DNA from: a virus | Taxonomy: Duplodnaviria > Heunggongvirae > Uroviricota > Caudoviricetes | Length of the DNA: 9,834 bases | IMG/VR virus record: IMGVR_UViG_2526164631_000019 | Reading direction: 5' to 3' (one strand) | In this document: positions 1 through 9,834 of the stretch, in pieces | Layout of the letters: each line of letters begins with the position of its first letter | How positions within the stretch are numbered: position 1 is the first letter of the stretch | The notes under the pieces: model-generated | Database searches by the model: none | Told to the model about the DNA's origin: nothing | The model's input: the letters and a program-made list of their open reading frames with translations, nothing else | Made by a program: the position numbers and the translations under genes

Positions 1-1101
1 GCTATCCATTCCGGGATTTTTGCCTCAAGCTCAAGCTGCGTGGTAAAGCCGCTGTTATCAATGGTGTGCCCGGCTTTTGCAATAATCCAGTCCTGATTAT
101 CAATCTCGCTTTTAAATCCTGTTACCGTGCCATGCATTTCGGGGTAGAGTTCTGCTCGTCCACGTGCCAGCGTGATGGAGAATGATGCGGCTCCGCGTTG
201 TAGTTGTTGCCACTTTGCCGCCGCTGCGCGTCTTGCTGCCTGCTCGTTCTGATAAGTCTTGCGTAACACAAACACATTGCCTTCCGCGCCTTCCATATAG
301 TCACCTTCACGGCTGCTGCTTTTCTCCTTTTTTGGGTTTGGCGGTTTTACGGCGTTTTCACGTCTGACTTTTTTTCTTTTCCCGTAATTAAGATCAAGTC
401 CAGTAGGCGCGTACCCCCGTATACGCTTCGCGGTCAGCAATGCGGAACTGATGGCGATCGCCGCTGCTGCGTGTGATGGCGAACGATGGCAACGGCTGGC
501 CCTGTGCGTTCACGCCACCGCCGGGCATGATGAATAACAGATTACCGCTTTTTACCGTGGTGATTGCGCCCAGCATTTCCGCCATGCGCGTAAGGAAGGA
601 CATGTCGCTTTCTTCGGTCTGGTCGGCGTGGTCGATTTCGATATCCATCAGCATTTCGCTGATTTGCGGTTTCAGACCATACCGATGAGCGATGGCGGAT
701 ACCACACGCTCAACGGTCACATCATGCCAGGACACCTCACGTTTAACGTTAAATTCATCCCGAAAATCTGCGCTTCTGGCTGAAACAGTCAGCCTGTCCG
801 GCGGTCCTTCGTGAGCGATTTCATCAACAATGTAAGTGCCTTTTTCTGTCAGCGGTTCTCCCTTCCAGCCAATGAGAACCGTCAGGCGCGCGCCCCGTGG
901 CGGTAGCTGCAACTGACCATCCGCATCATCCAGCGTGATGGTGAGCTGGTCCGCCTCAAATCCCCGGTTGTCGGTCAGTGACAGGCTCATCAGGCGCTCT
1001 GCCACGCCTGACAGCGTTTTACCCTCCGCGAGAATATCAAAATCCGGCATTTTCACGGGGTCTGTGCCCTGACTGAGCAATTGCATGGTGGTGTCGGTCA
1101 T
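1..1101 (-). CDS. Phage tail protein D (P2 gpD / late control D family); apparent frameshift near 392-401, 3' end beyond left edge of window
   Basis: ORF 394..1233(-) contains the motif SLSLTDNRGFEADQLTITLDD, typical of the gpD family as recalled. The likely start is the ATG at 1099-1101 (MTDTTMQLL), preceded by GGGAGGGAG. The frame ends at a TGA at 394-396, but another minus-strand frame continues as DLNYGKRKK...KWQQLQRGAASFSITLARGRAELYPE...GFTTQLELE to position 1, which reads like the gpD C-terminal half. Confidence 0.8.
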
Positions 1102-1258
1102 CTGCTCCCTCCCTGTGCGGCATGGTCGCATGTGCGTGCGGAGGGGGTTACTGCTTTTTGTTGTCGCCGGGTCGGGAGAACGGCGCAGGGGTGAGATTAC
1201 GCGCGTGGTGGGTGATGATTGTTGCCGAATCATTTAACGGATACAAGGGGCTGAAGCT

Positions 1259-2442
1259 ATGAGTGAAACTCGTTTTCATGGTGCCCGTGTTACGGAAAAT
1301 ACCGACCTGGTAACAGCGATTAACGATGTTGATTCCAGCGTTATCGGTATCGTGGCAACGGCGGATGATGCGGACGCGAAGCTGTTCCCGCTGAACAAGC
1401 CCACACTGCTGACCCGCGTTAATGACGTGCTGGGAAAATGCGGGACAACGGGGACGCTTTATCGTGCGCTTAAGGCCATCGCAGACCAGGTGAGCACAAA
1501 GGTGATCGTCGTTCGCGTGGCTGAACACAAAGAAGAAGACGGAAAGACGCAGGATCAACTGGTTATCGGTGGTTCTGAGGATGACGGCAGCTATACGGGG
1601 ATGTATGCGCTGCTTGTTGCAGAGCAGGATGAAAGCATCGGATACCGTCCGCGTATTCTGGCCGCGCCGGAGCTGGACACGGAGGCGGTGACAAAATCCC
1701 TGTGCGTGATTGCGGGTAAACTGCGCGCGTTTGTGTATGCCTCATGTCACGGCTGTAACACGATGGCTGAGGCGATTACCTACCGCCAGAAATTCAACGA
1801 ACGTGAGGTGATGCTCTTATGGCCGGACTTCATCGCCTACAACCCGAAAAGTGGCAAAAACGAACGTTCCCCGCGCCTGCCTATGCGTGCGGCCTTCGTG
1901 CGTACATTGACCATGAGCAGGGATGGCACAAATCACTGTCCAACGTTCCGGTTAAAAATGTGCTGGGGATGTCGAGGCATGTGTTCTGGTCGTTGCAGGC
2001 CGAAGACAGCGATGCCAACAGCCTCAACAACAAAGAAATCACGACCATTATTCGTCGCAACGGGTTCCGCTTCTGGGGCAACCGCACACCGGAAACGAAC
2101 GCCTACATCTTTGAGGTGTATACCCGAACCGCACAGGTGCTGGCTGATTCAATTGCAGAAGCGCAGTTTGAAACCATCGACAGTCCACTGACGCCTGCGA
2201 ACGTGAAGGATGTTATCAGTGCCATCAGGGCAAAACTGGATTCACTGGTTACTGCCGGGAAACTGATTGGCGCGGAGTGCTGGTATGACGTGGTGGATAA
2301 CAGCACCACGGATTTACGTCAGGGACGTGTGCGTATTCGCTATAAATATACGCCCGTTCCGCCACTGGAAGACATGGAGCTTTACCAGACGTTTACTGAT
2401 GAATACTTTGAACCCGCATTTGCGGTGCTGGGAGGTGCCTGA
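1259..2442 (+). CDS. Contractile tail sheath protein (P2 FI-like); apparent frameshift between about 1856 and 1872
   Basis: ORF 1259..2191 carries the N-terminal two thirds (MSETRFHGARVTE...LLWPDFIAYNPKSGKNE). ORF 1819..2442 in another frame carries the conserved C-terminal part (IDHEQGWHKSLSN...RRNGFRFWGNRT...YTRTAQV...YKYTPVPPLE). The AAGGGG ribosome-binding site lies about 10 nt upstream of the ATG at 1259. Joined length is about 394 aa, typical for sheath. Confidence 0.88.
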
Positions 2443-2953
2443 TGGCTGTGCCAAAACATCTTCGCTTTTTTACGCTGTTTGTGGATGGTGAAAACGAAGT
2501 GGGTAAGGTGACGTCCGTCACTCTGCCCAAACTGACGCGCAAAACCGACAGCTACCGGGGGGGCGCATGATGGGTGCGGTAAGTATTGATCTCGGTCTGG
2601 ACGACTCCGCGCTTGATGCGAGCTTTGTCATGGGGGGCGCAGTTCGTGAGCTGTTCCTTAAGTATGGCGGCACGATTGACGGCACGCTGCTGCGTTTTGC
2701 GGGTGAATACTACACCGATGCAGAAAGCGACCTGTATGAAGTCGAAATGCGCGGACGTGTGACGGAAATTGATATGGGGGAAGCCAAACAGGGCGAAGCC
2801 ACATCACACACTTACGCCATTAAAAACACCTACTACAAGCTGAGTGTTAACGATCGCCCGTTGTGGGAGATTGACCTGCTGAACTTCATTTACCGGAAGG
2901 ACGGCAAGGACATTGTGCCCGATCGCATCCGTTCCGCGCTCGGGCTTGGCTGA
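2442..2953 (+). CDS. Tail tube protein (P2 FII-like); apparent frameshift at G7 homopolymer 2557-2563
   Basis: The ATG at 2442 overlaps the sheath stop (TGATG). The N-terminal ORF reads MAVPKHLRFFTLFVDGENEVGKVTSVTLPKLTRKTDSYRGGA and stops at 2568-2570. ORF 2567..2953 in a different frame continues GAVSIDLGLDD...LRFAGEYY...EVEMRGRVTEIDMGEAKQGE. Both parts match the FII family as recalled (VTLPKLTRK, DLGLDD, MRGR..EID.GE.KQGE). Confidence 0.85.
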
Positions 2954-2965
2954 TAAGTAATATGC

Positions 2966-2986
2966 AGGCGGCGCAGTGCGTCGCCT
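2966..2986 (+). promoter_or_regulatory. GC-rich stem-loop between tube and E genes (possible attenuator or mRNA stability element)
   Basis: AGGCGGCGC agt GCGTCGCCT gives a 9-bp stem with one G-U pair and a 3-nt loop. It sits between the tube stop (2951-2953) and the E ribosome-binding site. No U-tract follows, so it is not a classical intrinsic terminator. Confidence 0.3.
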
Positions 2987-3007
2987 CTGACTGAAAGGAG
3001 TTTCCTG

Positions 3008-3373
3008 ATGAAAGAGACGAAAAACATCGATACCGAAAACACGGTCGTTGCTGACACTGTGAAAGAAACCAGTGAGCGTGGCATAAAACTTACCCAACCA
3101 ATTGAGCGAGGCGGCGAAAAAATCACGTATGTGGAGATCACCGGAGCTATTGAGCAGGCTGGATCTCTGCGAGATTTGTCGTTGTCTGATGTGCTGAATC
3201 TGAAAGCGGAATCCATGTTTACGCTGCTGTCACGCGTGACATCACCGCGACTGGATGAAGTGACGATCAAAAAAATGGCATCCCGTGACTTTATTCAGTT
3301 ATGTGTGGTTGCCGTAAATTTTTTGAGCGGTGCGGACTCTGGCGGGAAGAACGAACAGGCGACGGAAGCCTGA
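3008..3373 (+). CDS. Tail assembly chaperone (P2 gpE-like)
   Basis: 121-aa ORF with AAAGGAG 7 nt upstream of the ATG. Its position directly between tube and tape measure is conserved for this chaperone in contractile-tail clusters. It contains the slippery heptamer T_TTT_TTG at 3319-3325. Confidence 0.75.
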   Translation: MKETKNIDTENTVVADTVKETSERGIKLTQPIERGGEKITYVEITGAIEQAGSLRDLSLSDVLNLKAESMFTLLSRVTSPRLDEVTIKKMASRDFIQLCVVAVNFLSGADSGGKNEQATEA

Positions 3374-3537
3374 TCACGGTTGTGTGCTTTGAGCACATAG
3401 AAGACTTTGTGGCAGATATTGCCGTTATTTTTAACTGGTCGCCCGCCGAAATCTTCATGATGACGCCCGGCGAAGTGGTTAGCTGGCGTGAGCGGGCGGC
3501 ACTTCGCAGCGGGAATGCAGACAATGAAGACTCTTGA
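3008..3537 (+). CDS. Frameshift-extended chaperone (P2 gpE+E'-like), predicted -1 ribosomal frameshift at 3319-3325
   Basis: The -1 frame opens exactly at the slippery site and runs to a TGA at 3535-3537, encoding FERCGLWREERTGDGSLITVVCFEHIEDFVADIAVIFNWSPAEIFMMTPGEVVSWRERAALRSGNADNEDS. Its end overlaps the tape-measure start. Confidence 0.6.
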
Positions 3538-6331
3538 TATCCGGGTCGCTTTCAGCGCCGTTGACAGGCTGACCCGGCCTGCCGAAAACGCCCGCCGCCT
3601 GATGGGGCAGTTTGGTGACTCCATCCAGCGAACGCAGGGGGCGATCAAAAATCTCGAGCGTCAGGCGCGTTCATTTGAGCGCGCCCGCGACGCTGTCAGT
3701 AAAGCGGATGCGGGTATCGTGAAAGCACGACGCCAGCTTAACGCCCTTAATCAGTTACAACGCACGGGTACAGTGCTCAGCGAAAAGCAACAAAAGCTGA
3801 TGCAGCAGTTAAGCACCCGGCTTGAACGCCTGAATGAATCGCGCACACGGGAAATTCAGAAAATGCGGGAGCTTGGCGGAGAGCTGAAACGCCACGGCAT
3901 TTCCCTGACAGGCAGCGATAGCACCATCCAGCAGGCCATCAGACGCACCGAACAGTACAACAACCAGCTTGAACGCGAACGGCAGGCGCTTGCGCGTGTA
4001 ACACGTGCGCGTGAGCGGTATTCGCGCGCGCAGGAAACCGCGGGAAAACTGAAAACAGGTGGTGCGCTGGCAATTGGTGCGGCAGCGGCTGGCAGCTATG
4101 CTGCCGGGCGTTTTTTGCAGCCTGCGATCGGGTTCGGGAAAGAGATGTCCCGCGTTCAGGCACTGACGCGAATCGACCAGAACAGCCCGCAGTTTAAGGC
4201 GCTGCGTGAACAGGCGTTAAAACTTGGCTCTGAAACGCAGTTCACTGCAGGCGATGCCGCCAGTGGGCAGGCATTTCTTGCAATGGCTGGCTTCACTCCG
4301 CAGGCCATTCAGGCTGCGCTTCCCGGCGTACTGAGCATGGCAACGGCTGGCGGTATGGATCTCGGCGAAACGGCAGATATTGGCTCAAATATCCTGACGC
4401 AGTTCGGCCTTTCTGCTGACCAGATGGACCGGGTCGGTGACACGCTCACCGCAGCGTTTACCCGTACCAACACTGACCTTCGCGCACTGGGCGAAACCAT
4501 GAAATATGCAGGTCCGGTGGCGGGCAAGCTGGGAATATCGCTGGAGCAGGCCGCAGCGATGGCGGGCGTGCTGGCGAATATGGGTATCAGGGGAAGTGAT
4601 GCCGGGACGGCAATGCGTGCCAGCCTGGCTCGTCTGGCATCACCGCCAAAGGCGGCAGCAGAGGCGCTGAAAGAGCTTGGTGTGGCAGTCTCTGACGCGA
4701 ACGGCAAAATGCGCCCGATGGAGGATGTGCTGGCTGACCTTTATAAAGCCACCCGCAAATACGGGGAAGTTGACCGGGTATCGTTCTTTAAGGATATTGC
4801 CGGAGAAGAGGCTTTCACATCATTTATGGCCCTCGTTGATGCGGCAGGTGACGGCTCCTTACCCAAACTGAGAAAAGAACTTGAAGGCGCGCGCGGTGAG
4901 GCTGAACGCACAGCAAAGGTTATGGCCAACAACCTTGACGGCGATCTGAAATCACTCGGCAGTGCATGGGAAGGGGTGCGCATCCGCATTGCAGATCTGA
5001 TTGACGGTCCGCAGCGTTCTGTCACGCAGTGGCTCACGCGGGTGGTATCGAAGGTGACGGCGCTGGCGCAGGCCCATCCGGCACTGACGCGCCAGCTACT
5101 GGTTGCAGGCGGTGCTCTGCTGGCAATGACTGCAACCATAGGCTCGTTGTCGCTGGCTATTGGTGTGCTTGCTGGCCCACTGGCAAAACTGCGTCTTGGT
5201 TTTTCCCTCCTGACCGGATCATTGAATGTTGTCAGGGTTCTGCCTGCATTATGGGGAATGGTGACGGGTTCCATTTCGTTACTGGGAGGCGCTATCGGGG
5301 CGCTGTTCAGTCCGGTCGGATTGATTGCTGCTGCGTTTGTGGCTGCGGCGGTTCTCATCTGGAAATACTGGGAACCCATCAAGGCGTTTTATGCAGGGGT
5401 GTTCAGTGGGATTATGGAGCGACTGGCCCCGTTGCGCGAAACCTTTGAACGGTTTGGCCCTGTTTTTGACGCAATCGGAAGCGGGATCAGCCAGGTGTTT
5501 AACTGGTTTAAATCGCTGCTGTCACCGATGGAGTCCAGCAAGGAAACGCTGGATAAATGTACCAGTGCTGGCGAGATATTCGGTAACGTTCTTGGCGGTG
5601 CGTTACAGCTTGTTCTGACACCTGCAAAAATGCTACTGGATACGCTGGCGTGGATACTTGAAAAACTCGGTGTGCTTCCGGATGAAGCGGAAAGGGCGCG
5701 CAAGAAAATCGAAGACGCACAGCGTGCGGCCATTCTTCAGGACAAGGTTGCCTTGCTTCAGGGGGACCTGGCGAAAATCAATCTGCCGAAGCCTGTGGAA
5801 AATGGCAATGGCACCGGAGGTGATAAACCCAAAGACAACAAACCGCTCACAGACAGCAATACCGGTACGCTACGCAGACTCAGCAAAATTGCTGATAACA
5901 CAGGTAAGCTGGTTGATGAGACGAAAAAACGCATTGGCCCCGGCGATATTGTCTTTAAGAACCTGCCCCGCGCACTTGCTGTTCGTGGGGAGTGGCAGGA
6001 GCGGAAGATTGCGCAGGTCAGTAAGCCTGCTTCCGCAATCAACATCACACCCGTGGTCCCGACTCCTCTGCCTCCGGCGCTGGTCCCTGTTGTTGCGGCC
6101 AGCTCCCGCCCGGTGGCGGAGGCCATACGATCGCCAGTGGCATCAGTTCCTGCAACTTCCCGTAACCGGGAGCCTGTTGTCTCCGGATTTGGCGGTGAAA
6201 TTCATGTTCATCTGCATAACGTTGTTACGCAGAATCCCCGCGAACTGGCGAAACTGGTCGGTGAAATGGTCAGGGCAGAATTGGAACGACGCGACCGTGC
6301 CGGACGTGGCAGTTTTTACGATAAAGATTGA
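3515..6331 (+). CDS. Tail tape measure protein (P2 gpT-like)
   Basis: Uninterrupted ORF of roughly 940 aa. The N-terminal region is rich in charged, coiled-coil-like sequence, the central region has long Gly/Ala/Leu-rich hydrophobic stretches and the C-terminus is Pro-rich, which is typical for tape measure proteins. Candidate starts are GTG 3488, ATG 3515 and ATG 3524; the exact start is uncertain. Confidence 0.9.
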   Translation: MQTMKTLDIRVAFSAVDRLTRPAENARRLMGQFGDSIQRTQGAIKNLERQARSFERARDAVSKADAGIVKARRQLNALNQLQRTGTVLSEKQQKLMQQLSTRLERLNESRTREIQKMRELGGELKRHGISLTGSDSTIQQAIRRTEQYNNQLERERQALARVTRARERYSRAQETAGKLKTGGALAIGAAAAGSYAAGRFLQPAIGFGKEMSRVQALTRIDQNSPQFKALREQALKLGSETQFTAGDAASGQAFLAMAGFTPQAIQAALPGVLSMATAGGMDLGETADIGSNILTQFGLSADQMDRVGDTLTAAFTRTNTDLRALGETMKYAGPVAGKLGISLEQAAAMAGVLANMGIRGSDAGTAMRASLARLASPPKAAAEALKELGVAVSDANGKMRPMEDVLADLYKATRKYGEVDRVSFFKDIAGEEAFTSFMALVDAAGDGSLPKLRKELEGARGEAERTAKVMANNLDGDLKSLGSAWEGVRIRIADLIDGPQRSVTQWLTRVVSKVTALAQAHPALTRQLLVAGGALLAMTATIGSLSLAIGVLAGPLAKLRLGFSLLTGSLNVVRVLPALWGMVTGSISLLGGAIGALFSPVGLIAAAFVAAAVLIWKYWEPIKAFYAGVFSGIMERLAPLRETFERFGPVFDAIGSGISQVFNWFKSLLSPMESSKETLDKCTSAGEIFGNVLGGALQLVLTPAKMLLDTLAWILEKLGVLPDEAERARKKIEDAQRAAILQDKVALLQGDLAKINLPKPVENGNGTGGDKPKDNKPLTDSNTGTLRRLSKIADNTGKLVDETKKRIGPGDIVFKNLPRALAVRGEWQERKIAQVSKPASAINITPVVPTPLPPALVPVVAASSRPVAEAIRSPVASVPATSRNREPVVSGFGGEIHVHLHNVVTQNPRELAKLVGEMVRAELERRDRAGRGSFYDKD

Positions 6332-6337
6332 GGAGTC

Positions 6338-6832
6338 ATGGCCATGATGATGATCTACGGCATGTTTGTTTTTGAGCTGCGCACATTGCCGCATCAGCAG
6401 TTACAGCAAAATAAAAGCTGGCGGCATGTGAAAAATGAACGCGTTAACCGTTCAGCAAGCTGGCAGTATATCGGGGCAGGCGATGATCGCATCGTGCTTT
6501 CTGGTGTGCTTTATCCTGAAATCACAGGTGGCGAAGTGTCGCTGTCGCTGCTGACCACGCAGGCGTATACAGGACGCCCCTGGCCTCTGATTGATGGCGT
6601 CGGACAGATTTACGGCATGTATGTACTGACTGAAACGAATACGACCCGCTCCGAGTTTGATCGCTACGGTAAGGCGAAAAAGATAGAATTTTCACTGACT
6701 CTTGAACGCTGTGATGAGGATTTGCGGGAGCGCCTGCAATCCTCATCGTTCAGTGATATGCTGTCCGGCTTCAAAGATAAGGTCACATCATCCCTTAACA
6801 GCGCGGCCAGCTCCGTTAAAGGGCTGTTTTGA
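6338..6832 (+). CDS. Tail protein U (P2 gpU-like)
   Basis: The product begins MAMMMIYGMFVFELRTLP and contains WRH...LSGVLYPEITGG...WPLIDG...IYGMYV...RSEF, matching gpU as recalled. GGAG at 6332-6335 favours the ATG at 6344 as the true start. The gene follows the tape-measure stop directly. Confidence 0.85.
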   Translation: MAMMMIYGMFVFELRTLPHQQLQQNKSWRHVKNERVNRSASWQYIGAGDDRIVLSGVLYPEITGGEVSLSLLTTQAYTGRPWPLIDGVGQIYGMYVLTETNTTRSEFDRYGKAKKIEFSLTLERCDEDLRERLQSSSFSDMLSGFKDKVTSSLNSAASSVKGLF

Positions 6833-6839
6833 TTAACGC

Positions 6840-6869
6840 AAAACCGCTAATGGTCAGATTAGCGGTTTT
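6840..6869. terminator. Hairpin terminator between convergent gpU and invertase genes
   Basis: AAAACCGCTAAT ggtcag ATTAGCGGTTTT is a perfect 12-bp stem with a 6-nt loop, followed by a T-rich run (cattttcc) on the plus strand. It starts 8 nt after the gpU stop and overlaps the last codons of the invertase ORF. Confidence 0.6.
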
Positions 6870-7458
6870 CATTTTCCTGAGTCTGCCTGGTTGTTTCTTC
6901 AGCCTGTATATCGCCTACAGGGTGATAACGATAAATCGTCGATATGCCGATGTCGTAAATGATCGCCAGTTGTTTCCTGTCATGACCGTTTTTAATCAGC
7001 CTCGCTATTTGCTCGTGTTGTTCTTTTGTCAACTTCGGGCGACGTCCGCCAATGCGTCCTTGTGCGCGTGCTGCTGCCAGCCCGGCCAGTGTACGCTCTA
7101 CAATTAATTCACGTTCCATTTCGGCTAAAGCTCCCATGACGTGAAAAAAGAAACGCCCCATGGGTGTTGATGTGTCAATGCTGTCCGTTAGACTACGGAA
7201 ATTAACACCTTTTTCCCGCAATTCCTCAATAAGCGTGATCAGGTGTTTCATACTTCTGCCCAGTCTGTCCAGCTTCCAGACAACCAGCGTATCTCCTTCT
7301 GATAGCGTTCTGAGCAGTTTTTTCAATCCCGGTCTGGCTGATTTCGTTCCGCTGATTTTATCTTCAAAAATCAGTTCACATCCTGCGCACTCCAGCGCGT
7401 TACGCTGCAATTCTGTATTCTGGTCATTTGTTGATACGCGGACATAGCCAATAAGCAT
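6859..7458 (-). CDS. Serine site-specific DNA invertase, Hin/Gin/Cin/Pin family
   Basis: The 199-aa product begins MLIGYVRVSTNDQNTELQRNALECAGCELIFEDKISG and contains TLVVWKLDRLGRSMKHLI, FRSLTDSIDTSTPMGRFFFHVMGALAEMERELI and GGRRPKLT, nearly identical to Gin/Hin over the catalytic domain as recalled. The catalytic Ser is at position 9. A C-terminal helix-turn-helix region follows, then a tail of about 15-20 extra residues. Confidence 0.95.
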   Translation of the reverse strand: MLIGYVRVSTNDQNTELQRNALECAGCELIFEDKISGTKSARPGLKKLLRTLSEGDTLVVWKLDRLGRSMKHLITLIEELREKGVNFRSLTDSIDTSTPMGRFFFHVMGALAEMERELIVERTLAGLAAARAQGRIGGRRPKLTKEQHEQIARLIKNGHDRKQLAIIYDIGISTIYRYHPVGDIQAEETTRQTQENENR

Positions 7459-7513
7459 GATGGATCCCCTGAATAAAAACCGGGGATGATGCCAGTTAGC
7501 CGTAATCTCTGCA

Positions 7514-7539
7514 TTTTCTTAAACGTTGGTTTAGGAGAA
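7514..7539. repeat. Crossover site 1 for the invertase (hix/gix/cix-like 26-bp site)
   Basis: TTTTCTTAAACG TT GGTTTAGGAGAA. Its reverse complement TTCTCCTAAACC AA CGTTTAAGAAAA resembles the hix consensus TTCTTGAAAACC AA GGTTTTTGATAA. The central dinucleotide is at 7526-7527, 68 bp from the invertase start codon. Confidence 0.8.
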
Positions 7540-7884
7540 GCGGCAAAACGGAATGTGGGCACAGGAGATAATCAGATACCGGATATGGGAGCATTCGCTT
7601 CTGGTTCGGGATGGTTCAGGCTACCAGGTGGATATATTGTTCAGTTTGGCACTTTTGCAGGAAACACGACCCGCTTTATCAGTGGACACTTCCCTATACC
7701 ATTCCCTAATCAGCCGATGGTTTCAGTCAGTGTTATGTCTGATGCCGTTCAGTCAGACCCGTCGATTCCTGCCCCGCAGGTTTTGTCTGTAAATTTTGAA
7801 CATATCAGTAATTCAGCGTGGCGTGTGGCAACCAGTGATATCTCACAGCAATACAGATTCAGTTATATTTCGATAGGACGGTAG
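7528..7884 (+). CDS. Silent alternative tail-fibre C-terminal cassette (no start codon of its own; expressed only after inversion)
   Basis: An open frame starts at the crossover core and encodes [62 protein letters not shown]...[12 protein letters not shown], ending at TAG 7882-7884. The first codons (GGT TTA GGA GAA = GLGE) match those just inside the site in the expressed fibre gene. A tail-fibre assembly gene follows 2 nt downstream. Confidence 0.7.
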   Translation, partial: [118 protein letters not shown]

Positions 7885-7886
7885 AA

Positions 7887-8327
7887 ATGCAGAAATATAT
7901 TTTCAGTGCCGATAAAAATGCGTTTTTCCCTGTGGAGCTTAAAATCGCTTATCAGGAATCCGGCGAATGGCCCGATGATGGAATCGAAATTGACGACACT
8001 GTTGCTGCCGAATTTATGAAGGAAGCACCAGAAGGAAAATACAGAGGTGTCATCGACGGAATGCCTGCATGGATTGATATTCCACCGCCAACTCATGAGG
8101 AACAAATTGCCGCAGCCGAACTGAAAAAGCAGCAATTGATTAATCAGGTCAACGAATACATAAACAGTAAGCAATGGCCTGGTAAAGCGGCGATTGGTCG
8201 CCTGAAAGGTGAGGAACTGGTGCAATATAATTTGTGGCTGGATTATCTGGACGCACTGGAACTGGTCGATACTTCCGGTGCGCCAGATATTGAATGGCCT
8301 ACGCCTCCGGCAGTTCAGGCCAGATGA
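7887..8327 (+). CDS. Tail fibre assembly protein (Tfa), partner of the silent cassette
   Basis: 146-aa ORF with AGGA 8 nt upstream of the ATG. The C-terminus LVDTSGAPDIEWPTPP is the Tfa-type motif also found in the convergent Tfa (TDTSTAPDVIWPELP). Its position directly after a fibre cassette fits the role. Confidence 0.85.
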   Translation: MQKYIFSADKNAFFPVELKIAYQESGEWPDDGIEIDDTVAAEFMKEAPEGKYRGVIDGMPAWIDIPPPTHEEQIAAAELKKQQLINQVNEYINSKQWPGKAAIGRLKGEELVQYNLWLDYLDALELVDTSGAPDIEWPTPPAVQAR

Positions 8328-8892
8328 CATCCGGTGCGGTGCTGGTATCTGTTGCCGTCACCGCGTCAATATAATCCAGCACAGCGTTAAGTCGGGTGTT
8401 TTCTGGCTGCGTCAGCTTCCGCACGGCCTGTAATTTCAGTTGAATCAGACTGATGGAAGCCATTGCAGCATCAATCAGCGACTGGCGCTTTACTTCTGCC
8501 GCGTCTAGTGCGGCGCTATGCTGTGCCTCGGTATCCGTCACCCATTTCTCACCATCCCATTTATCGTATGGCGTTAACGGTGAAAGCGTGACATAACCGT
8601 CTTTGATGGCACCGATATAATCCACTGTAACAGCTGCGCCATTTTCGATTGAGTAAACAGTCTCATTGCGGTGGTCTTCTTCATGGCTCCATCCCTTACC
8701 CGTAAATACTGCCACTCTTCCCGGAATGTATTCGCCCGGGTCAATACCAGTGGAACAAGCGGGCATACTTACGCCAGTATTAATATATTCATCAGACCAG
8801 CCAGTATATTCATACGTAACTGCCTCATAATAAAAACAACGCATATTACCCGGTACTGTAGCCAGCCCATTTTCATCAAAAACAGGTTTCAT
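8299..8892 (-). CDS. Tail fibre assembly protein (Tfa), partner of the currently expressed fibre C-terminus
   Basis: 197-aa ORF whose ATG overlaps the fibre stop codon by 1 nt (TAATG). The C-terminal motif is TDTSTAPDVIWPELPEA. It lies inside the invertible segment. Confidence 0.85.
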   Translation of the reverse strand: MKPVFDENGLATVPGNMRCFYYEAVTYEYTGWSDEYINTGVSMPACSTGIDPGEYIPGRVAVFTGKGWSHEEDHRNETVYSIENGAAVTVDYIGAIKDGYVTLSPLTPYDKWDGEKWVTDTEAQHSAALDAAEVKRQSLIDAAMASISLIQLKLQAVRKLTQPENTRLNAVLDYIDAVTATDTSTAPDVIWPELPEA

Positions 8893-9834
8893 TATTTAGC
8901 CCTCACTAGAAAGTTAAATGCAATATTTCGTGGGCGGGTTTCTGTACCTACATTTCCACTAATTTCACCATAACGTTTAACGCTACGAGAGCTAATAGCT
9001 CGTAGTGAGGAAGGCACCCTAAGACCGGGTTCGTCCGTTTTAACTATTCCCCCGTCACCATATGTAGCCAGTATTCCTGGGTTTACTCCTTCCCGTGTAC
9101 TTCCTGCGACAAGCCCGTCCCCCGTCCACAATTCCATATTGTGTGCATGATCCATAATTGTGTGTGATTGCCCTGAAAGTAGGGTACGTCCGACATCAAT
9201 CCCGCGTCCGTCATCCCAGATACGAATGAAATCACCGCGTGCGTCAGGTAATGCCAGCGCCGGAAACACTTTCGCCAGCACAGGGTAATCAGTGGCAGAG
9301 AATTTCGCGCCGTTGAACTTCAAAAACACCATGCTGGACCAGCTATCGATTACGGTATCTGGCATTGCTGCGGACGGCCAGAAGAACGGAACGCCAATAG
9401 CTGGAGCACCTTCTCCCAAACCAAGGTAATCAAGAACTCCCTGAGTGCTGGTTTTACCAAGAATGGCACGTCCAACACTTGTCAACGCGGTTAACGCGGC
9501 ACGATCTGCCCCTGTAAAATATGGGAGTTTATCTGCTGATGTAGCAAGCTCCGCCAGCGCCGTCAGGGTGGCATCCTTCGGTTGCTTACCCGCAAGCGCG
9601 TTAGTCATGGTGGTCGCAAAATTCGGGTCATTGCCCAGCGCCGCAGCCAGTTCGTTCAGCGTGTTCAGTGCATCAGGTGACGAATCTACAAGTGCGGCAA
9701 TCGCAGCCATAACGAAAGCCGTGCTTGCGATCTGGGTACTATTAGTCCCCTGTGGCGCTGTTGGTGTTGTTGGCGTTCCGGTCAGTGCCGGGCTGTTTAA
9801 TGGTGCTTTCTTGTTCGTTTCATCCATTACCGCC
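8892..9834 (-). CDS. Tail fibre protein (P2 gpH-like constant region fused to variable C-terminal domain); 5' end beyond right edge of window
   Basis: The frame is open to the window edge, so the Met at 9827 is internal. The constant part (DETNKKAPLNSPALTGTPTTPT...NTLNELAAALGNDPNFATTMTNALAGKQPKDATLTALA) resembles P2-type fibres as recalled. The part downstream of the crossover site contains a tail-collar-like motif (LPDARGDFIRIWDDGRGIDVGRTL). Confidence 0.9.
   Translation of the reverse strand, partial: AVMDETNKKAPLNSPALTGTPTTPTAPQGTNSTQIASTAFVMAAIAALVDSSPDALNTLNELAAALGNDPNFATTMTNALAGKQPKDATLTALAELATSADKLPYFTGADRAALTALTSVGRAILGKTSTQGVLDYLGLGEGAPAIGVPFFWPSAAMPDTVIDSWSSMVFLKFNGAKFSATDYPVLAKVFPALALPDARGDFIRIWDDGRGIDVGRTLLSGQSHTIMDHAHNMELWTGDGLVAGSTREGVNPGILATYGDGGIVKTDEPGLRVPSSLRAISSRSVKRYGEISGNVGTETRPRNIAFNFLVRAK
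9411..9436. repeat. Crossover site 2 for the invertase, inside the fibre coding sequence
   Basis: TTCTCCCAAACC AA GGTAATCAAGAA is inverted relative to site 1. The half-site inside the segment matches the reverse complement of site 1 at 11 of 12 positions, and the core AA is identical. On the minus strand it encodes VLDYL-GLGE with the core in codon positions 2-3, the same phase as at site 1. Confidence 0.8.

Follow-up and report, generated by a model that had tools for sequence, protein, structure and literature searches.

The interruption of the tail tube gene in this contig of Escherichia coli DEC12A is, with a probability of roughly 85%, a base-calling or consensus error of the 2012 draft assembly and not a property of the organism. 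A consensus error is favored because the finished genome of apparently the same strain has an intact tube gene; further, errors of the same class are present elsewhere in the contig, since eight single-T length changes inside its gpD gene cannot be natural. Among the three options of the original prediction, namely an artefact, a genuine inactivating mutation and a reversible on/off tract, the evidence (an intact finished genome and the contig's private indels) favors the first. A tube gene interrupted at a run of seven G (G7) is best classed as not a real feature, and as saying nothing new about the gene.

The tail module and its divided tube gene

The window, which is the whole stretch of 9,834 nt that was analyzed, is identical to AIHA01000057.1 of GCA_000250215.2, the draft genome of E. 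coli DEC12A from 2012; the E. coli DECA collection drafts of that year include AIHA00000000 (PMC3558956). Gene tables and Pfam matches identify its content as the tail module of a P88-like prophage (Xuanwuvirus, Peduoviridae; P2 family), with the following genes.

1 to about 1100, minus strand: gpD (tail/baseplate protein D)
1259-2442, plus strand: sheath (gpFI homologue), split by a one-base deficit
2442-2953, plus strand: tube (P2 gpFII homologue)
3008-3373, plus strand: E
to 3537, plus strand: E′ (via a -1 shift)
3524-6331, plus strand: tape measure
6344-6832, plus strand: gpU
6859-7458, minus strand: serine invertase
7486 to the end, both orientations: tail-fiber and assembly genes, with an invertible segment

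In the window and its relatives, the tube gene sits in a contractile-tail operon of sheath, tube, chaperone E/E′, tape measure and U. The closest known phage is Escherichia phage P88, whose gene order around the tube (AIZ95156.1) is the same, with gpD on the minus strand followed by sheath, tube, E, E′ and T, and whose DNA is 98% identical to the window over 2300-3100. The sheath-tube-E-T-U block is opposite in strand to the gpD/ogr and fiber genes, and the same arrangement is found in P88. In P2, the sheath-tube-E-T-U genes are collinear with the gpD/ogr and fiber genes.

The tail-fiber region carries a genuine DNA switch. A 1.9-kb segment (7526-9427) is inverted in assembly UASE01 relative to the window and to strain 12A, although all three hold the same prophage. 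Imperfect inverted repeats similar to cix/gix sites, with the sequences CGTTGGTTTAGGAGAAG and the reverse complement of CCTTGGTTTGGGAGAAG, flank the segment; the crossover sites lie at about 7524-7540 and 9410-9427. The segment adjoins the Gin/Cin-type serine invertase (PF00239 and HTH_7; 6859-7458, minus strand). In seven other loci (L003-L005, L008, L009, L011 and L012), related prophages lie beside tamB and carry, in place of the invertase, a gene for a SopE-type guanine-nucleotide exchange factor (PF05364/PF07487) directly after gpU, at about 10764-11486 per locus, a cargo position like that of the SopE phage.

As deposited, the tube gene consists of these parts.

2442..2570, plus strand: N-terminal tube fragment of 42 aa, MAVPKHLRFFTLFVDGENEVGKVTSVTLPKLTRKTDSYRGGA, ending ...SYRGGA; matches PF04985 positions 1-38 (E = 7e-10, 39.4 bits)
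2557-2563, plus strand: G7 run (GGGGGGG) of wild-type length, within codons CGG GGG GGC of an Arg-Gly-Gly-Gly motif; not the site of the lesion
2565, plus strand: a lone G where every intact orthologue has GG, the one-base deficit that shifts the frame, as located by pairwise and four-way alignments
2567..2953, plus strand: C-terminal tube fragment in the -1 frame, 128 aa starting MMGAVSIDLGLDD; matches PF04985 positions 40-165 (E = 2.6e-29, 102.6 bits)

After the G7 run, the window reads C (2564), G (2565), C (2566) and then ATGATG from 2567, and a TGA stop stands at 2568-2570; both the run and the stop are thus where the original prediction had put them. The downstream ATG overlaps the upstream stop (ATGA, 2567-2570). 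In place of a single uninterrupted ORF of about 170 aa, which is absent from the window, there are 42 and 128 aa, and the 128-aa fragment corresponds without a mismatch to residues 43-170 of the 170-aa protein that the intact tube gene encodes in strain 12A and phage P88. Because the two ORFs match adjoining parts of PF04985 (Phage_tube, Phage tail tube protein FII), they are one tube gene that has been split, as predicted. Both fragments are deposited in GenBank under the name "major tail tube protein [Escherichia coli DEC12A]", the 42-aa piece being EHX22384.1. The gene belongs with P2 gpFII/PF04985 and the R-type pyocin tube (PA0623; PDB 3j9q, 5w5e and 6pyt), with sequence matches to the solved pyocin tube chains at E of about 1e-24 to 6e-25; unlike in that family, the window's match is divided over two ORFs in different frames.

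The presence of a G7 run in the window is unremarkable by chance: there is 1 such run where 0.94 is expected, and 103 of 200 dinucleotide-preserving shuffles contained at least one.

Position of the missing base

The finished genome of E. coli O111:H2 strain 12A (CP077479), a strain of English origin, aligns to the whole window at 99.7%, and the next genome reaches at most 97.4%. By name, serotype and near-identity, strain 12A and DEC12A appear to be one strain or, failing that, members of one clone; a literature search did not find a paper linking the two records. In 12A, the tube gene is an intact 170-aa ORF. Over 934-9834, the window and 12A are the same except for two synonymous substitutions (3182 and 3214) and two one-base deficits (1863-1864 and 2565).

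At the tube site, 12A reads CC GGGGGGG C GG CATGATGG, while the window reads CC GGGGGGG C G CATGATGG. The intact reading is TAC CGG GGG GGC GGC ATG ATG (YRGGGMM), and when intact orthologues are aligned, the missing base falls two positions past the G7 run in the downstream direction. The frame change was originally located inside the run itself; the deficit lies instead in the GG at 2565 (G7-C-G-CATG versus G7-C-GG-CATG). The premise that G7 had lost a G, which stood behind all three of the options offered, is therefore wrong, as G7 is the normal in-frame length. The proposed repair by one extra G does restore the frame arithmetically, yet it does not restore the wild type (YRGG-R-MMG versus YRGGGMMG). 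G8 was also considered as the true form and rejected, since the frame is lost when G8 precedes CGG and since G8 is absent from intact genes and from complete E. coli genomes. When the base at 2565 is restored, the tube protein is identical to that of phage P88 at 170 of 170 residues (compared via strain 12A), and the intact form scores 159.6 bits against PF04985 over positions 1-165, where the cut-off is 22.4.

The same prophage can be followed in further assemblies through its tape-measure protein, whose exact 935-aa sequence is confined, across the whole collection, to four assemblies: CP077479, the NCTC assemblies UGEB01 and UASE01, and the window's own contig. In a four-way alignment, 12A, UGEB01 and UASE01 all read G7-C-GG at the tube site, with the tube intact, and A5-CG-AAA at the sheath site, and all 28 of the 28 window-specific columns are private to the window. 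UGEB01 is intact at the tube site although it carries numerous indels that are private to it.

Recoding, or a functional split gene, would be a further way to account for the break: either a -1 slip at G_GGG_GGC (2558-2564) would yield ...YRGGRMMG..., or coupling through the ATGA overlap would yield two fragments that assemble. In favor of this, the step from the upstream to the downstream frame is indeed -1, the stop is closely preceded by a formally slippery heptamer and shares bases with the next ATG, and the same operon has what appears to be a programmed -1 frameshift, that of E/E′ at T_TTT_TTG (3319-3325). However, recoding sites are conserved, and the window allele, searched as a 67-mer, was found at 0 of 467 places in 429 complete RefSeq E. 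coli records and in 0 of the 120 listed viral contigs; it is also missing from the same prophage in three other assemblies. Moreover, the conserved tube fold is interrupted internally, the break lying between PF04985 positions 38 and 40. Recoding or a functional split is accorded next to no probability. Programmed frameshifting or transcriptional slippage at the G7 run was likewise rejected, as the configuration is not conserved.

The E frame contains the slippery E/E′ heptamer, and a PF06528 (Phage_P2_GpE) domain is encoded in the -1 frame. This site appears to be the programmed -1 frameshift that is conserved for the P2-type tail assembly chaperone, whereas the break in the tube gene is not conserved.

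Related length changes within the contig

The window contig carries ten private one-base length changes, one in the tube gene, one in the sheath gene and eight, each of a T, in gpD. In the sheath gene, the window has AA at 1863-1864 (A5-CG-AA), where every other locus examined has A5-CG-AAA, and the gene is split. The resulting 310-aa product occurs in this contig alone across the whole collection of 153 billion gene positions, and within that collection a second, independent assembly with the sheath frameshift was not found. The eight changes in gpD are gathered as follows.

328..399, minus strand: stretch of gpD with eight single-T length changes within 67 nt, relative to 12A and P88, which break the frame several times

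In particular, T5-GGG-T4 in 12A and P88 becomes T6-GGG-T3 in the window, and T6-C-T5 becomes T7-C-T4; in addition, two T3 runs become T4, and two T are inserted where the reference has none. Both 12A (369 aa) and P88 (366 aa) have an intact gpD ORF. Natural mutation is not a plausible source of eight T length changes within 67 nt. As a separate matter of annotation, RefSeq describes the 12A gpD gene (L001, 5692-6801) as a 266-aa "VgrG/Pvc8 family" CDS and a small pseudogene, though the 369-aa ORF is intact, and the O145 genomes show the same pattern; this appears to be a peculiarity of the annotation rather than a truncated gene.

The affected sites share a common form. In all four affected contexts (two in gpD, one in the sheath gene and one in the tube gene), a short run beside a longer run of the same base is miscalled. 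Contexts defined as a run of at least 5, followed by 1-3 other bases and a run of at least 2 of the same base, occur 16 times in the 12A reference beyond 930. Their short runs make up 36 of 8902 bases and contain both private deletions, for which the chance is about 1.6e-5, a figure that is indicative only, as the context was defined post hoc. Before 930, both such contexts, which lie in gpD, are altered in that a base has apparently moved from one T run to the neighboring T run.

A second instance of the tube allele shows a comparable pairing. The only other contig with the G7-C-G allele is L016, an independent Logan assembly from run SRR495239. Over 5.3 kb, it differs from its near-identical twin L023 at two places only, a T6-GG-T4 whose T4 is reduced to T3 and the tube site, and this pair of differences is the same signature as that of the window.

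The pattern of private indels fits flow-based (454-type) sequencing. Flow sequencing generates undercalls, overcalls and asynchrony (CAFIE) insertions near homopolymers (PMC3116506, PMC3711422), and the same sequencing center used 454 Titanium reads with Celera for contemporaneous E. coli drafts in 2012 (PMC3491183); the platform of the DEC12A draft was probably 454 Titanium. Like the errors of 454 and Ion Torrent instruments, the window's changes include one-base undercalls and overcalls in runs, insertions matching a nearby homopolymer and bases seemingly shifted between neighboring runs of the same base. The likeness comes with the caveats that survival of such errors into a consensus also needs low coverage or mixed paralogous reads, and that the DEC12A platform is a presumed one. 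Mechanistically, incomplete extension and carry-forward across a long homopolymer would disturb how the following run of that base is called, so that the draft would have called the GG after G7-C as a single G, shifting the frame by -1 and bringing in a stop five bases further on. Reads of a second, related (paralogous) prophage, merged at the contig end, may have aggravated the errors.

The contig end differs from 12A in other ways as well. In 1-933, there are 18 mismatch columns between the window and 12A, comprising 14 plain substitutions and 4 that result from the run-length shifts. Private substitutions relative to the 12A prophage number 16 in total, the 14 clustered at the contig end and those at 3182 and 3214. 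The 14 contig-end variants match alleles of other P88-like gpD genes, in which they occur singly, and one such locus (L013) has 11 of the 14. As donors of the contig-end segment, complete genomes, 12A included, gave no exact match over 400-1000, the best reaching 99.5% in unrelated strains. A second P88-like prophage in UGEB01 was considered as a donor and rejected, as it carries the 12A alleles at the variant sites. The contig end may be mosaic or chimeric, or a recombination patch.

These observations bear on the alternative that the tube and sheath deletions are genuine, having inactivated a decaying prophage in the 2012 DEC12A culture while being absent from the stock used for the finished genome. 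Structural genes of a prophage are free of selection in a lysogen, and frameshift alleles at this G-rich site are known elsewhere (G6 in RM9467-C1, G8 on at least 4 backgrounds and G7-C-G in L016). Against this, the affected element is a GG dinucleotide and the far more slippage-prone G7 was spared; the eight T changes in 67 nt of the same contig are demonstrable errors of this class; three other assemblies of the same prophage are intact; the sheath lesion occurs once among 153 billion gene positions; and the tube allele is in no complete genome. Genuine deletions are unlikely on this evidence, though they are the foremost of the alternatives to a consensus error. Two counterpoints to a consensus error should be weighed. 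If DEC12A and 12A are the same strain, the 14 substitutions in 1-933 call for a second explanation, for which a chimeric end is proposed. Further, G7-C-G occurs in another background (L016) and a GG-to-G change in two more loci (L013 and L015), and a recurrent real mutation could give the same result.

The tract across P88-like tube genes

Across other genomes, G7 is a minority synonymous spelling of Arg-Gly-Gly-Gly, whose commoner form is GGGGTGGTGGC, and it is not a conserved tract. The original prediction held that orthologues with the same G7 and an alternative in-frame reading would count against it, and such orthologues exist: the exact intact 68-mer with G7-C-GG, in frame, is present in 79 complete E. 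coli records. Phage P88 differs in that its tube gene is uninterrupted and its Gly codons are spelled GGGGTGGTGGC, with no G7 run. The IMG/VR survey sample comprised the first 120 matches listed, which include 97 with GGGGTGGTGGC, 11 with G7-C-GGC, 6 with GGGGTGGCGGC, 4 with G7-T-GGC, 1 with GTGGTGGTGGC and 1 that is frameshifted. Among these listed matches, 119 of 120 are in frame, G7 is found in 15 of 120, all of them in frame, and the window allele in 0 of 120. Complete RefSeq E. coli genomes contain the G6 allele five times and the G8 allele not at all.

Public assemblies nevertheless hold a variety of frameshift alleles at the tube site, including G5, G6, G8, G8C, G9C, GGGTGGTGGC and GGGGTGGTGC, and the GG-to-G allele is also found on P88-type sequence (L013 and L015). 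Among loci L003-L012, the tape-measure genes of many variant-carrying assemblies are broken at differing places (L004, L007, L009, L011 and L012), which indicates that these assemblies are error-prone; the long-read assemblies with G5 and G6 likewise have broken tape-measure genes. The G8 product is listed for 116 collection blocks and occurs with intact neighbors on four or more prophage backgrounds (L023-L027), and one G8 contig was seen in at least 20 samples. At many contig ends, partial tube products are on record that stop at the tract or immediately upstream of it.

Among finished genomes, O145 strain RM9467-C1 has G6 and is annotated as "frameshifted", while the near-isogenic RM9872 has G7, and this is the only internal difference between them in 10 kb. 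The alleles of RM9467-C1 (G6) and of the short-read G8 assemblies are like that of the window in affecting the same gene and the same 11-nt tract of Gly codons by a one-base change, and in splitting the ORF into about 42-49 aa and 128 aa. They are unlike it in that their change lies in the long G run, whereas the window retains G7 and is short by one in the next GG.

Overall, the tract is trouble-prone in general, and from assemblies alone the shares of mutation and miscalling are inseparable. The claim that the tract is prone to indels thus holds for other assemblies (G5, G6 and G8 alleles), while regulated or reversible switching is unsupported. A phase-variable homopolymer tract, that is, a contingency locus that switches production of the tail tube and hence of phage or tailocin, would draw on the fact that G5, G6, G7 and G8 lengths are all recorded, with G6 versus G7 between near-isogenic finished genomes. 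However, G7 occurs in both broken and intact alleles, so the off state is not made by the tract, and many of the length variants come from indel-riddled assemblies with broken tape-measure genes. Moreover, 97 of the 120 listed viral contigs and the functional phage P88 encode the same Gly residues as GGGGTGGTGGC, without a long run, whereas selection for a switch would predict the reverse. With the tract at its wild-type length here and not conserved among orthologues, the reversible on/off tract of the original prediction is not supported for this contig, and phase variation is very improbable as the cause.

A broader proposal is that G7-C-GG is a true mutational hot spot that repeatedly abolishes, and possibly restores, tail production in P88-like prophages. 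This is distinctly doubtful, though less so than phase variation. If it were true, the DEC12A lesion, the G6 alleles of finished genomes and the G8 in at least 20 samples would be real events, and prophage decay would usually begin at the tract, or the tract would act as a crude on/off switch. If the lesion alone were real, it would add just one more defective P2-like prophage in an EPEC strain.

Under the favored explanation, a consensus error of the 2012 draft, the finding is mainly a caution: the call of a tail-gene pseudogene in this early draft reflects assembly quality and not prophage decay or phase variation. Drafts of the DECA era would mislead the scoring of prophage intactness, of tailocin potential and of contingency loci, and the signature of a short run beside a long run of the same base offers a quick flag for such errors.
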